Position numbers and translations under genes: made by a program. A stretch of DNA of 37,760 bases from a virus (lineage: Duplodnaviria; Caudoviricetes), in the IMG/VR virus record IMGVR_UViG_3300050147_000055, positions 1 through 37,760 of that record. One strand, written 5' to 3'. Positions within the stretch are counted from its first letter, which is position 1, and each line of letters opens with the position of its first letter. The notes beneath the pieces are model-generated. The model did not search any database. It was not told the DNA's origin and was given only the letters and a program-made list of their open reading frames with translations. Below, piece after piece: positions 1,314-36,786 of the stretch.

Positions 1314-1859
1314 TCAAAGCTTACCGGTATGCCGCGAGGGCTTGACGGTGTCTCTGATTATATTGTTGAGTCGGTCATTGTTTGCTGCGACAAGTGCGAG
1401 CATGTCAGCAACGTGGCCGATGTTTGGCTTTAACTGGCCGCTGTCCCATCGCTGGACGGTTAGGCGGCTAATACCCAGCGCGTCAGCAAGCGGGCTTTTC
1501 CAATCACGCCCGTACAATGCTTTCCCAATCTCGCGCACATCCTCTGGTGTGATGTTTAGGTATTTGGACTCTAGCGCGTCAAAGTGATACCAGCCGCGCC
1601 AAAAATCGCCTTGCTTGATCATTGATACGCCGTCTTTAAGCCGCTCAAGCTCTGACAGATCGACGCGGTTTAGCATCTCACCCCATACCTGCTTATCATG
1701 CAAGCCGTTACTCATGGCGTATTTATGCAGGTTGCCAAGGCCGGTAATTGGCTTGACGCACAGCAGGGTGATGATGTTGGTCGGGATAGACTCAGTGATT
1801 GGCATTTGCTTTTGCACAGAGCGGGCAATCATGCCGAGTTGGTATAGTGGGTTGCTCAT
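1314..1859 (-). CDS. Two-domain protein: Cas8c-CTD/Cas11c-like N-terminal domain plus C-terminal HTH
   Basis: GGAG RBS before ATG 1859; HTH SPLADALGISRLTVQRWDSG; N-domain YQLG...QGDFWRGWYH. Confidence 0.7.
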   Translation of the reverse strand: MSNPLYQLGMIARSVQKQMPITESIPTNIITLLCVKPITGLGNLHKYAMSNGLHDKQVWGEMLNRVDLSELERLKDGVSMIKQGDFWRGWYHFDALESKYLNITPEDVREIGKALYGRDWKSPLADALGISRLTVQRWDSGQLKPNIGHVADMLALVAANNDRLNNIIRDTVKPSRHTGKL

Positions 1860-2920: not shown

Positions 2921-2948
2921 TTGCAAAGTATACCATTTGGTATACAAT
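2921..2948 (+). promoter_or_regulatory. Rightward sigma70 promoter with palindromic operator
   Basis: TTGCAA-16bp-TACAAT; perfect palindrome GTATACCA-TT-TGGTATAC at 2928-2945. Confidence 0.75.
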
Positions 2949-3002
2949 GAGGACATACCGGAGCGATTAGCGCAAACGGATGATCCCAAGGGGACACGCA
3001 AA

Positions 3003-3392
3003 ATGAACATGAGCAAAAAAATGATTTTCGGCATCGCACATGCACGGGCAAAACGCGTACACATTAAAGGCGATAGCTACCAAGTGACTTTTGGTTCTGC
3101 GTTGCGCAACTTGTACAAAGAACTAAAACGCCAAGCATTTAGTCATCCAAAGCTGCGCACATGGCAGTCAAAAGACGCCGTACACTGCCGCGCCTACCCA
3201 GATTGTGATTACACCTTTGCTGTAGCCATGCAAAAACATGGCATTGCTTGCAAATCCGCATGGGTCAACGTTGACAGCGGCGCAATTGAGTTTGATGGTC
3301 TGCGCAAATACGGCAAAAATGGCTTTGACGGATCGGACGCAGAAATGCAAACGCTGGCAATCAGTTTTTTTAAACAATGGCTTGCAGACTAA
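3003..3392 (+). CDS. Hypothetical protein, N-terminal paralogue of 2087-2455
   Basis: AAGGGG RBS; MSKKMIFGIAHARAK..GDSYQVTFGSALR. Confidence 0.8.
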   Translation: MNMSKKMIFGIAHARAKRVHIKGDSYQVTFGSALRNLYKELKRQAFSHPKLRTWQSKDAVHCRAYPDCDYTFAVAMQKHGIACKSAWVNVDSGAIEFDGLRKYGKNGFDGSDAEMQTLAISFFKQWLAD

Positions 3393-3404
3393 AAGGGGAT
3401 TGGC

Positions 3405-3710
3405 ATGAAGTTGAGCATGACTAAAGATGATGCCATCCGCATGATTGAGATCATCGGTGGGACGCGCAAAGCCGCAAGCATGATCAAAAACCGAAATGGG
3501 CAGCCTATGGCGCACCCAAACCTGTCAAAGGCGGTCAACGGCGAAGCGGAGGATATAATCGCAGAATGGCTTGCGCAGCAGTTGCTTGATGTTGCCAACG
3601 AGAAAATCGCAGAAGATTCAGCGTATATATTTGCGCGTTGGTCGGCTGTTGTTGATGCGCAGATTGAAGAACGGGAAAGTCAGCAGCCTTTAGACCCACT
3701 TGACTACTGA
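3405..3710 (+). CDS. Putative HTH regulator
   Basis: AAGGGG RBS; Cro-like pattern IEIIGGTRKAASMI...HPNLSKAVNG. Confidence 0.6.
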   Translation: MKLSMTKDDAIRMIEIIGGTRKAASMIKNRNGQPMAHPNLSKAVNGEAEDIIAEWLAQQLLDVANEKIAEDSAYIFARWSAVVDAQIEERESQQPLDPLDY

Positions 3711-3735
3711 AACACCAACCAAGGGAGTATTTATC

Positions 3736-4020
3736 ATGCCAAATCTAGTAACAACAGTCACCACACCGGCGCTGCGCGCTAACGTGATCGGCGAAAAGAA
3801 GTCGTATTTGATCGCTGTACACTTTGACCGCTTTGATGATGACACCGTGCGCGTTTATGCGGTATCGGGCCACAACGGCGAAGAAATGAAAGCGATTCGC
3901 CAACGCAAGATCACCCGCGCCCGTTTGCAGGCATTGCCAGATGATGCGCTTGATCCGCTAGTTTTTGCCGAAGCCGCATTCGATTTGCTTGATATTGAAA
4001 TCACCGGACGCGAAGCATAA
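3736..4020 (+). CDS. Hypothetical protein
   Basis: AAGGGAG RBS before ATG 3736; followed by terminator. Confidence 0.7.
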   Translation: MPNLVTTVTTPALRANVIGEKKSYLIAVHFDRFDDDTVRVYAVSGHNGEEMKAIRQRKITRARLQALPDDALDPLVFAEAAFDLLDIEITGREA

Positions 4021-4211: not shown

Positions 4212-4478
4212 ATGGCCGCACGCAAGCCACAGACCCCCGGCAATCCCATCGACCCAACAGTTGCGCCCGCACCGGAGCGACAGGCTGGCCTTGAAGTCTT
4301 GACAGCGATCATGTCTCAGCCAGCAGATCCCGCGTCCGAATTGGCTGCGGCACTGGCGCGAGTGGCAGCCCTTGAAGCCGAAAACGCAGCATTGCAACAG
4401 CCCACCAATAATGCGGTCGGCGCGGGCAAACCTGTACGTCACGGCGCACGCTTGACTGATGCAGGGTGGATCGTATGA
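4212..4478 (+). CDS. Hypothetical protein (first late gene, short coiled coil)
   Basis: ORF after late promoter; ATGA coupling to next gene. Confidence 0.75.
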   Translation: MAARKPQTPGNPIDPTVAPAPERQAGLEVLTAIMSQPADPASELAAALARVAALEAENAALQQPTNNAVGAGKPVRHGARLTDAGWIV

Positions 4479-5275
4479 GCATCACTAGCACAACAACGGG
4501 CGCAGGCGTCGTCGTTGGTCTCGAGCAAGACCCGCAACAGCTTGGCTTGCAGGCTCGTGATTTTGGGCTTGATGTGGCCGCCGGTAACTACGCAGGTCTG
4601 ACGGGTGGTCGAGCCTTTGGGTTTAATCCAGCTACACCTACAACTCAAGAGATGATCTGGGCTGAGTCAGGCACAGCATATCCATGGCCTAGTGCCGCAT
4701 CTGTACGCACGGTCTCGTCATCGAGTGCACTGGATACAGCAGCAGGGACGGGCGCACGGACTGTGCAGATCGTTGGGCTTGATGCGTCATTCAACGTCAT
4801 TACCGAGGTTGTGACGCTGAATGGCATCACAGCAGTCACCACGGTCAACGCGTACTACCGCATCAACGACTTTGCTGTACTGACCGCAGGCACGGGCGGT
4901 ACTAATGCGGGCATTGTGTATGTCGGGTCGGGGACGGTCACACTTGGCAAGCCTGCAACTGTTCTTTTTTCGATTGACACTGGCATGGGTGGTGGCTTGC
5001 AGGCGATGTACACCGTTCCGGCAGGTAAAAAGCTATACCTTGCGTCATTCCTGCTGTCGTTTTCTGCGGCAGGTATTTTGTATTTGTGGGCGCGAGCAAA
5101 TGGCTCGGTCTTCCGTGTGCTGGGTCGATTCCCCGCGCCTGCTTTTGCACTATCCATCCCTCTTAACTACAAAACTCCTGTGCCTGCTGGTACTGACATC
5201 TATCTTTCGGCGGCGGCTGTCACAGGCACGATTATCGCGTCCGCTCGCTTCGAGTTTTTTTTAGGAGACGCTTAA
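4475..5275 (+). CDS. Putative virion structural/decoration protein
   Basis: Gly/Thr/Ala-rich, beta-rich; located in head operon. Confidence 0.6.
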   Translation: MSITSTTTGAGVVVGLEQDPQQLGLQARDFGLDVAAGNYAGLTGGRAFGFNPATPTTQEMIWAESGTAYPWPSAASVRTVSSSSALDTAAGTGARTVQIVGLDASFNVITEVVTLNGITAVTTVNAYYRINDFAVLTAGTGGTNAGIVYVGSGTVTLGKPATVLFSIDTGMGGGLQAMYTVPAGKKLYLASFLLSFSAAGILYLWARANGSVFRVLGRFPAPAFALSIPLNYKTPVPAGTDIYLSAAAVTGTIIASARFEFFLGDA

Positions 5276-26833: not shown

Positions 26834-27041
26834 CGTTCATGCCCACAATAGTGATGTATGCGCGAGCATCGCGGATTGAATCTTCCATCCCGCCACTTTC
26901 TAAAATTATCGCGTTGTCATACGCTTCAATTGAGCACTCTAAGTGCAGCAACAGTTCATCACGTTCTGACTGGATCGCATCAATATTGGCTTGTAGTTTT
27001 GCCACAACTTGATTGTGGTCTTCGATACTGATTAGGCTCAT
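26823..27041 (-). CDS. Hypothetical protein
   Basis: Coupled ORF in leftward operon. Confidence 0.7.
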   Translation of the reverse strand: MSLISIEDHNQVVAKLQANIDAIQSERDELLLHLECSIEAYDNAIILESGGMEDSIRDARAYITIVGMNDED

Positions 27042-27670
27042 TTGGCGGTCTCCGGTGCAGGTGGTAGGGGCATCCAGTGTTTACCAGCATTGATCCTGCA
27101 CAAGGCTGATCTGTAGTTGATTCCGGTTAATTCACAAGCTTGAGAAAGCGGAATTTTCTGTCCATTGAAATCAACTAGACGATGACTTCGCTTATTTCTT
27201 GCTTGCACCAAAGATGTAGCCCATCTGCAATTGCTTGGCTCATAATTTCCATTAACATCAATTCGATCAATAGATGAATTTGGACTGGGCTTATTACCCA
27301 TGTCAGCAATAAATTGAGAAAAATCATTCAGCCATTTGTCACAAACCATTATTCCTCTCCCGCCATAATCCTTGAATTTCTTGTTGCGAGGATTGGTGCA
27401 TCTGCTTTTCATGTGCACCCAAGACCGATACTCGCTACTATTTGTTAAGCCGTGTTTCGATCTTAATCGGCAGTTATTGGCAACTACTTCGCGCTGAAGG
27501 CATCCGCAACTTTTTGTGTGACCACTAGTTAAGCCTCTAGGGTCACAAATCACTGATGTGCCGCAGTCACAATCGCAAGCAACTCTTCTGCGTCCTTTTA
27601 GGCTTTCAGCGTCTTTTGTAACAAGCAGCCGACCAAAACGTTGGCCTATTACGTCAATTTTTCTTGGCAT
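27038..27670 (-). mobile_element. Free-standing HNH homing endonuclease gene
   Basis: GQRFGRL, CDCG, KSCGC, YGGRGI, SIDRIDVNGNYEPSNCRWAT; GGAG RBS; AT-rich. Confidence 0.88.
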
Positions 27671-27944
27671 AACAATCTCCGCTTTCATCAATCGGCTGCC
27701 ACGTCTGAGCAGCCCTGAGTGCGTCAATCTCGGCTTGCATCTTGGCTGTGACGTGGTCGGCGTACAGAATGGACGTAACTGCGCTGAGCACATCCTCAAT
27801 ATCAATCTTTCCGCTTTCAACCTCGCTGCGAATTTCGCCCTCGCTATCCAAGCCAAGCTGCTTGACGGCCTGAACAACAGACACATCTGATATGTCAGCC
27901 TCAAACGCATCGTGCCACTCTTTAAAGTCGCTGTATTTGCTCAT
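27654..27944 (-). CDS. N-terminal part of an interrupted DUF551-type protein
   Basis: Ends shortly after WQPI. Confidence 0.65.
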   Translation of the reverse strand: MSKYSDFKEWHDAFEADISDVSVVQAVKQLGLDSEGEIRSEVESGKIDIEDVLSAVTSILYADHVTAKMQAEIDALRAAQTWQPIDESGDCYAKKN

Positions 27945-35626: not shown

Positions 35627-35950
35627 ATGTCCGAAATCATCCCATTTTCAAAGACCGGCCAAACATGGTCAACCGAAGACCACAAAAAACATGGTCAGAC
35701 CGTTGGCAAGTACGCAGCCGGTGCAATTGACCGTGATGCCTGCATCGCCCAAATGCGAGCCATGCTTGGTATGACTGACCAACCCAAGGCCGCGCCTGTT
35801 GCGGTTGAAAAGCCTGCCCGCACCAATGCCGACCTAGCACCAATCTATGCGCCTGACCCTTTTGATAACGCCGCTGAATACGTCGCATCGTGCCGCAAGA
35901 GTGGCCGCGCTATCCCAGCTTGGTACTTCGGTTGTGTGGGTGAGGTATGA
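35627..35950 (+). CDS. Hypothetical protein
   Basis: GGAGGAG RBS. Confidence 0.7.
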   Translation: MSEIIPFSKTGQTWSTEDHKKHGQTVGKYAAGAIDRDACIAQMRAMLGMTDQPKAAPVAVEKPARTNADLAPIYAPDPFDNAAEYVASCRKSGRAIPAWYFGCVGEV

Positions 35951-36786
35951 CATGGCTATTTTCAAACGCCCTGCTGACCCAATGCGCGAACTCGCCCTCT
36001 TTGCCGGAGCGGGTGGCGGAATCCTTGGCGGCCAGTTGCTCGGGTGGCGAACCGTGTGCGCTGTGGAATTCGACGCATACGCCGCATCCGTCCTGGTTGC
36101 CCGTCAAAACGACAAAACGCTTGAGCCTTTCCCGATCTGGGATGACGTACGCACTTTTGACGGACGACCTTGGCGCGGGGTTGTTGACGTCATTTCTGGC
36201 GGGTTTCCGTGTCAGGACATCAGCGCAGCGGGCAAGGGCGCAGGAATCACCGGGGAGCGTTCCGGCTTGTGGTCACACATGGCGCGGATTGTCGGTGAGG
36301 TTTTGCCCAAATACGTTTACGTGGAAAACAGCCCAATGCTTGTGGGACGAGGACTTGCACGAGTCGTCGGTGATCTTGCCGCGCTGGGGTATGACTGCAA
36401 ATGGGGAGTGCTGGGAGCGGATGACGTGGGTGCGCCCCATGAGCGTAAGCGCCTGTGGCTTATATCCTACGCCAACAGTGTGCGGCAATTACAACCGCAA
36501 GGGACTGAGCAAGACGAGTGGCGACGGGCTGGCAACTGTGGTCAAGCGAATGACCTGCCCAACACCGACATGTCACATGGCCAAAGAGGGCGACTACCCA
36601 AGCGAAGCCCTGCGCAATCAACCGAGCTTGACGCACATTGCGCGCCGTGGGGATCAGACCCAGCCGACGATGCTGAATCCGGTGTGGGTCGAATGGCTAA
36701 TGGGGTGGCCTATCGGGTGGACAGACTTAAAGCCATTGGAAACGGGCAAGTACCGCTTGTGGCTGCAACAGCATGGGAAATCATAA
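35947..36786 (+). CDS. Alternative-frame partner of C5 methyltransferase (TRD plus motif IX-like)
   Basis: GAGGT RBS and ATGA coupling; two PTPT repeats; LNPVWVEWLMGWPIGWT. Confidence 0.7.
   Translation: MTWLFSNALLTQCANSPSLPERVAESLAASCSGGEPCALWNSTHTPHPSWLPVKTTKRLSLSRSGMTYALLTDDLGAGLLTSFLAGFRVRTSAQRARAQESPGSVPACGHTWRGLSVRFCPNTFTWKTAQCLWDEDLHESSVILPRWGMTANGECWERMTWVRPMSVSACGLYPTPTVCGNYNRKGLSKTSGDGLATVVKRMTCPTPTCHMAKEGDYPSEALRNQPSLTHIARRGDQTQPTMLNPVWVEWLMGWPIGWTDLKPLETGKYRLWLQQHGKS

Follow-up and report, generated by a model that had tools for sequence, protein, structure and literature searches.

The window, i.e. the whole 37.8-kb viral record (37,760 nucleotides) analysed here, is podovirus-like and rated 97% complete. 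On its minus strand, an open reading frame (ORF) at 1314–1859 starts with an ATG at 1859 and encodes a product of 181 aa, hereafter P0001. It closes a short operon (the left operon) in which a promoter and a two-hairpin leader are followed by genes of 122, 64 and 181 aa and by a terminator. The features of this region are as follows:

1280–1301 (no strand assigned): intrinsic-terminator-like hairpin just 3′ of the stop codon; T-run on the plus strand by scan, and an A-run before the hairpin (a T-run on the minus strand) by eye
1314–1565 (−): C-terminal Cro/Xre-type helix-turn-helix (HTH) and long last helix, residues ~99–181 (phrog_3626, E 7.7e-9; HTH_3, E 0.07)
1566–1859 (−): N-terminal helical domain resembling Cas11c and the Cas8c C-terminus, residues 1–98 (HHalign, PDB profile, Atlas, AlphaFold2 model)
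1896–2090 (−): 64-aa ORF, second gene of the left operon, anti-defence candidate by position; no Pfam, PHROG or NCBIfam match
2087–2455 (−): 122-aa ORF, first gene of the left operon, anti-defence candidate by position (phrog_12732, E 3e-5)
2453–2503 (−): 5′ leader with two predicted hairpins, the second near the start codon (z −1.16, not significant alone)
2508–2536 (−): predicted sigma-70-like promoter of the left operon, TTTACA-17-CATAAT, 10/12
2511–2530 (no strand assigned): near-perfect 20-bp palindrome between −35 and −10, candidate operator, unlike the family consensus operator
2553–2577 (−): 25-bp element upstream of the left promoter, with an inverted copy at 2879–2903 upstream of the right promoter
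2921–4020 (+): divergent sister operon with a layout like that of the left operon (promoter 2921–2948, palindrome 2928–2945, two-hairpin leader; ORFs 3003–3392, 3405–3710, which is HTH-like by eye only, and 3736–4020)

The gene of P0001 is identical in a second viral record, and no mismatch within it was seen in contigs from four further sequencing runs. All motifs that the first-pass annotation had quoted from this ORF are present in the 181-aa translation. An AlphaFold2 model built on a 50-sequence alignment (mean pLDDT 90.7) places a helical domain at residues 4–100, the HTH next to it (helices 105–116, 121–128 and 132–140) and a long last helix at 147–172. Together with the phrog_3626 match, this confirms the earlier suggestion that an HTH follows the N-terminal domain. 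The palindrome previously marked at 2513–2528 is also real and forms the core of the 20-bp palindrome listed above.

The phage had been described as free of a CRISPR locus. In agreement with this, the record contained no match to cas8c and no CRISPR-like direct-repeat array, and no cas genes were found among 39 other ORFs scanned against PHROGs. Rfam gave no match in the record either. A solitary type I-C repeat RNA is not claimed, because a type I-C repeat-end motif occurs in the window at chance level (2 seen, 2.7 expected). Capsid similarity names no single host, the matches of ~52% being to phages of Yersinia, Acinetobacter and Alcaligenes. Elsewhere, the window carries an HNH endonuclease-like gene among the early genes (27038–27910; phrog_374, E 7e-69) and a DNA methyltransferase-like gene (35947–36786).

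The two ORFs upstream of P0001 match no known anti-CRISPR (Acr) in Pfam, PHROGs or NCBIfam. The N-terminal ~60 aa of the first are common to ORF 3003–3392; in Atlas, the first ORF gave a lead-level match only (0.89). The sister operon, with a palindrome of its own, is a second acr-aca-like operon, and its first gene also has the phrog_12732 N-terminus; by eye, this N-terminus occurs as well in the gene upstream of the family member in locus L054. At 2553–2577 and 2879–2903, the element GCCGACGAACGGT lies ~27 bp upstream of the −35 box of each window promoter (2 matches against 0.15 expected), and it was also seen near the operons of relatives in L010 (4597–4609), L017 (317–329) and L018.

Contigs of two runs depart from the window sequence at 2577, and one contig departs at 1238. 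From these departures, and from the ORF extension described below, the left cassette appears to be an accessory module missing from related phages, with no single contig spanning both ends. No joint pointing to inversion at the 25-bp inverted repeat was seen in the four runs, whose contigs show presence and not absence. By eye, the diverging contig end at 2577 extends ORF 2602–2868 upstream in frame. This HTH-like ORF is seemingly 5′-truncated by the left cassette, and the diverging contigs appear to hold its intact 5′ end.

The P0001 family and its similarity to Cas8c and Cas11c

By sequence, P0001 is a member of the phage and plasmid protein family phrog_12690, whose function is unannotated (residues 6–170, E 4.5e-27). 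With tblastn, near-full-length relatives were found in 22 of the 26 matching phage records (Xanthomonas, Mannheimia) and in 4 of the 5 matching plasmid records, and profile searches added 36 proteins, 80 viral loci, 13 genomes and 80 metagenome loci. The 50 aligned members are 19–30% identical to P0001; the family is 165–185 aa long.

A domain-profile search of 1.84 billion representatives returned 97 proteins, 95 of them new, of which three were dropped (two low-complexity matches and one true Cas8c). Forty carry the same HTH as P0001, five have a C-terminal and seven an N-terminal Xre HTH, one has an HTH before three repeats (P0077), 32 are at most 130 aa long and lack an HTH (some of these are contig fragments), and seven have other architectures. 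The P0001-type HTH was also found alone in ~70-aa proteins. Thus, each domain occurs without the other. A quick tree (112 columns, 60 of 110 branches open), which serves only for placement within the same-HTH group and not for counts of origins, puts P0001 on a long branch (1.24).

Some unusual arrangements also occur. A single protein of 768 aa, P0077, has a TPR domain, an Xre HTH and three Cas11c-like repeats. P0086 (1003 aa) is a natural Cas8c-Cas11c polyprotein, in which a full Cas8c is followed by three extra tandem C-terminal (Cas11c) domains. OP2-group Xanthomonas phages carry two tandem family paralogues (L004, 4965–6042; L030, 3396–4473), the second with a degenerate HTH.

As a single sequence, P0001 matched no Cas family at E ≤ 1 in Pfam or NCBIfam, and no Cas link emerged from single-sequence searches of the PDB, a word-index homologue search or an Atlas feature search. 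The Cas link of P0001 is therefore made at the level of the family. HHalign aligned the family with 24 Cas8c C-termini at 94.4% (E 9e-8), as against 0.2% for the reversed-alignment control, and reached 95.2% with another pair of alignments. The top five matches of a PDB profile search with the family were D. vulgaris Cas11c/Cas8c, with Cas11c first (E 1e-4). At E ≤ 1, Pfam Cas_Csd1 was matched by 19 of the 50 members (best 0.003), and TIGR01863 was matched by 14 of 50. The Cas_Csd1 similarity anticipated by the first-pass annotation is thus absent from P0001 taken alone and present at family level.

Scored against the Cas8c C-terminal profile, 49 of the 50 family domains lie above every reversed control, P0001 ranking 47th of 50 with 5.8 bits. 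At least 14 of the 95 relatives, with true Cas8c excluded, pass the Pfam Cas_Csd1 cut-off, and 7 of these share the HTH of P0001. A profile of those 7 gave P0001 25.8 bits (reversed, −0.3); since its members were picked for Cas8c similarity, only the score of P0001 is independent. Compared model against model, the Atlas model and a 125-aa Cas8c/Csd1 cluster gave a TM of 0.69 over 95 residues. As judged from these profile comparisons, the N-terminal domain is almost certainly homologous to the Cas8c C-terminus and Cas11c, which is what had been read from the sequence by eye, and P0001 is among the most divergent members. The family has the character of an orphan cas homologue on mobile elements.

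The register drawn by eye was recovered in part. In a joint alignment, the GRL, SxP and FxxGYYH motifs that are invariant in Cas8c C-termini stand opposite G9, P37 and FWxGWYH. Confidence is lower for the middle of the register, because local HMM alignments cover no more than the C-terminal ~70 residues and put P26 instead of P37 opposite the Cas8c proline. Several relatives retain the M-x-LD start that precedes the Cas8c C-terminal domain.

With the Cas11c/Cas8c C-terminal domain (PDB 7KHA, 8DEX, 8G9S; Cas_Csd1, TIGR01863), the family shares Y-x-LG, the P and QGxFxxGYYH and, as predicted from models, the helical core. It differs in being ~14 residues shorter (91 vs 105), in lacking F605/F117, DR[YF] and the positive charge, and in being encoded alone on phages and plasmids, outside cas operons. 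According to the available part of O'Brien et al. (10.1101/2022.06.15.496202), F605 (F117 in Cas11) is a conserved base-stacking residue for the non-target strand, and K607/K608 make backbone contacts to the same strand.

When residues are counted from the GYYH glycine, the position of F605/F117 is occupied by an aromatic in 22 of 24 Cas8c sequences and in none of the 49 parsed members, 35 of which have D or E there; P0001 has Ser. None of the 63 parsed relatives across all architectures keeps the aromatic. The conserved R/K that follows occurs in 21 of 24 Cas8c and 0 of 49 members, the DR[YF] motif in 22 of 24 and 0 of 50. The net charge of the core is +4.4 in Cas8c and −1.3 in the family (46 parsed), with +1 in P0001. 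Basic residues distal to the GYYH helix are mostly retained (mean per sequence 1.3 in the family and 1.7 in Cas8c), Q[RK] is kept in 13 of 37 same-HTH relatives, and P0001 retains all seven invariant family residues.

These proteins do not look like a functional Cas11c: their genes are not within a cas8c/cas operon, and the stacking Phe and the positive surface are missing. A core that is kept together with a DNA-holding face that is lost fits a decoy-like pattern. The loss of the Phe may be explained, at least partly, by the helix that now runs into the HTH.

Operon context, operator and hosts

In a Xanthomonas translucens prophage (L010), the gene directly upstream of a family member, P0005, encodes a protein of 94 aa with a pI of 6.57, identical to cluster_11640, i.e. 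AcrIC10, as given in the available part of the source. AcrIC10 is a validated type I-C inhibitor, and the available part of Gussow et al. (PMC7391736) describes the second gene of its operon only as having an HTH domain. By sequence, this unnamed HTH gene is a member of the Cas11c-HTH family, an identification that is new; a neglected gene of the acrIC10 operon thus carries a Cas-derived domain. Homologues are present at L009 and L011. The linkage to a validated acr was seen in the family; the window's own upstream genes are not AcrIC10.

More generally, the family gene is usually the last in a short operon, after a single small gene or a few that are unrelated to one another. In the available text of Shehreen et al. 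(PMC9410906), the acr-aca layout consists of an HTH gene closing the acr operon and an inverted repeat in the core promoter. The same was found here: an HTH gene at the operon end among small genes on a mobile element, and a core-promoter inverted repeat, which in the window has a different sequence. The upstream ORFs of 22 related loci matched no Acr model in NCBIfam or Pfam (NCBIfam for the three window ORFs); these scans are insensitive, because AcrIC10 itself matched none. None of six short motifs taken from proteins of the family or encoded upstream of it occurs in the part of the Gussow supplements covered.

By eye, the upstream genes in L175 (~2155–2490), L185, L187 and L206 resemble AcrIC3 at both ends, and those of L175 and L185 have the same last five residues as AcrIC3. 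In a Thiomicrospira bin (L087), a Csf1-like (type IV) fragment at 4366–4980, with an E of 1.5e-4 that is below the cut-off, lies two genes upstream of a family member.

The palindrome TGnnCCT-N6-AGGnnCA between −35 and −10 was found at 9 or more of 10 positions in 15 of the 19 training promoters of the family. It reached the same level in 10 of 18 held-out metagenome loci, a set from which 20 loci similar to the training set had been taken out. Among the controls, none of the 14 downstream stretches or 8 HTH-only loci reached this level, whereas 8 of 360 shuffles did. In the window, the best fit to this operator covers 6 of 10 positions, and the family operator was rejected there. The recognition helix differs as well, reading SRLTVQRW in P0001 and DxRRxRxW in the family. 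For these two reasons, the operator of P0001 is assigned from its position only; the altered recognition helix fits an altered operator, without proving one.

The 5′ leaders of the family have two hairpins in common, the second over the ribosome site. In a covariation test, 88% of cells pair, as against 77% when shuffled, and 8 of 11 pairs change on both sides; here the structure came from one member, and relatedness inflates the result. Singly, the hairpins are not significant (z from −0.45 to −2.15 in 9 of 10 folded leaders, −2.30 in one). Aca2 binds leader RNA, and the two-hairpin leader of the family resembles that case.

Among the 13 carrier genomes, cas8c was found in 7 and not seen in 6, compared with 26 of 200 sampled Pseudomonadota (Fisher p 0.001); the carriers are few, partly related (Pasteurellaceae) and partly incomplete, one bin is probably mis-assigned, and two are Desulfobacterota set against a Pseudomonadota background. 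Together with the relative behind AcrIC10 and the conserved family operator, this enrichment argues for the setting proposed by the first-pass annotation, an autoregulated anti-CRISPR cassette.

Possible roles of the fusion protein

The position of a relative right after a proven anti-CRISPR gene makes it likely that the protein acts as a faulty spare part and jams the host CRISPR complex. We propose, with slightly more belief than doubt, that it is an Acr-Aca fusion, a type I-C counterpart of AcrIB4, whose Cas11c-like domain enters Cascade and spoils R-loop locking. The domain would settle in the belly of the type I-C Cascade of the host and displace the real Cas11c; with the strand-holding residues missing, the R-loop would be destabilised. 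It is very likely, judging from the sequence, that the HTH represses its own operon, and it would do so via the promoter palindrome. Binding to Cascade may also titrate the repressor off its operator (cf. AcrIE10). The poison and the sensor that had been offered earlier as options are not mutually exclusive.

P0001 could instead be a pure Aca repressor, with a Cas11c-like domain that only stabilises it or oligomerises, through a head-to-tail self-association taken over from Cas11c that would give cooperative binding of the operator or of leader RNA, and with the upstream genes as the real inhibitors. Such a role would agree with the constant aca position of the family gene at the operon end behind variable genes, with the several arrangements in which the domain is joined to DNA-binding domains and with the loss of many Cas11c-specific residues; structures with 8 and 15 Cas11c chains (PDB 9JHB, 9JHC/9JHD) are compatible with self-assembly. 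We nevertheless consider it unlikely. The ~70-aa proteins carry the same HTH without the Cas11c-like domain and HTH-less versions exist, while the enrichment of cas8c in hosts and the linkage to a type I-C Acr are in keeping with a domain that continues to encounter its cognate complex, even though the linked Acrs alone could produce that enrichment.

If the domain bound Cascade with little blocking, it would act as a sensor that lifts repression, and the upstream Acrs would be made only where type I-C is active. The repeated fusions to DNA-binding domains among the 95 relatives (40 with the same HTH, 5 with a C-terminal and 7 with an N-terminal Xre) suit a sensor, and AcrIE10 is de-repressed by Cas7* according to the available part of the source. 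However, HTH-less versions could sense for the promoter only if paired in trans, and the systematic loss of strand-holding residues, predicted by an inhibitor, is unnecessary for a sensor, which makes a mere sensor quite improbable. It is also very unlikely that the family is Acr-Aca and P0001 alone has drifted or regulates an anti-defence cassette against a target other than type I-C CRISPR. A Cas8c similarity among the weakest of all members, the long branch in the tree, an operator and a recognition helix unlike those of the family, and the absence of assignments for its upstream ORFs and host would point that way, but the seven invariant residues are kept, and the ORF is intact along with its promoter, palindrome and terminator, all of them without change in other samples.

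Read as an Acr-Aca fusion that enters Cascade, P0001 has several parallels. AcrIIA1, AcrIF24, AcrIIA15 and AcrIE10, the last three known Acr-Aca fusions in the available parts of the sources, likewise join a putative inhibitor domain to one that binds DNA, in operons whose promoter bears a palindrome. Their inhibitor domains are not known to be copies of Cascade subunits. Aca1–Aca10 (PMC9410906) share with the family the HTH gene closing an acr operon and the core-promoter inverted repeat; in the available text they measure 60–125 aa, whereas the family, at 165–185 aa, has an extra Cas-derived domain. Assignment to one of these named families was rejected on account of this size mismatch and of a similarity to Aca2_YdiL (matched by 11 of 50 members at E ≤ 1, best 7e-4) that is below the cut-off.

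As a precedent for Cas-like inhibitors, the first-pass annotation had named the Cas7-like AcrIF25; AcrIB4, which resembles the Cas8b C-terminal domain and Cas11b, is closer. In the available part of Katz et al. (10.1101/2023.06.24.545427), this Listeria protein shares 38% identity with the final 90 residues of Cas8b and blocks type I-B before DNA binding, and EVADES (10.1101/2025.06.06.658234), in its available part, proposes that it replaces Cas11. Both AcrIB4 and the P0001 family are mobile-element homologues of the large-subunit C-terminus or Cas11. The family differs in deriving from type I-C and not I-B, in a similarity that is at profile level only, in its fusion to an HTH and in having a predicted function.

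No description of a Cas11c-HTH fusion was found in the literature searched, which left out most subscription papers, and nothing on the family was found in the available parts of PMC10910872 and 10.1101/2024.12.27.630466. Its relatives may be listed in the table of 358 orphan viral cas genes by Katz et al. Until now, an inhibitor that takes the place of Cas11 had been suggested for type I-B alone (AcrIB4). The family would extend this to type I-C, a compact system used in genome editing, and couple it to autoregulation. It would also serve as a new Aca-type marker, making the unrelated small upstream genes direct candidates for new type I-C Acrs. Testing is cheap because heterologous type I-C assays exist.

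On a broader reading, which we hold to be rather doubtful, a widespread superfamily of stolen Cas11c domains, repeatedly fused to DNA-binding domains, would poison type I-C Cascade and also use it as an inducer. Phages and plasmids would then possess a feedback switch made from a subunit of the immune complex itself, acting at the promoter and possibly at the two-hairpin leader. If so, the operons of this superfamily would mark dozens of candidate type I-C inhibitors. As a minor observation, the multiple D. vulgaris Cas11c chains of PDB 9JHB, 9JHC and 9JHD may show either self-assembly or a bound partner.
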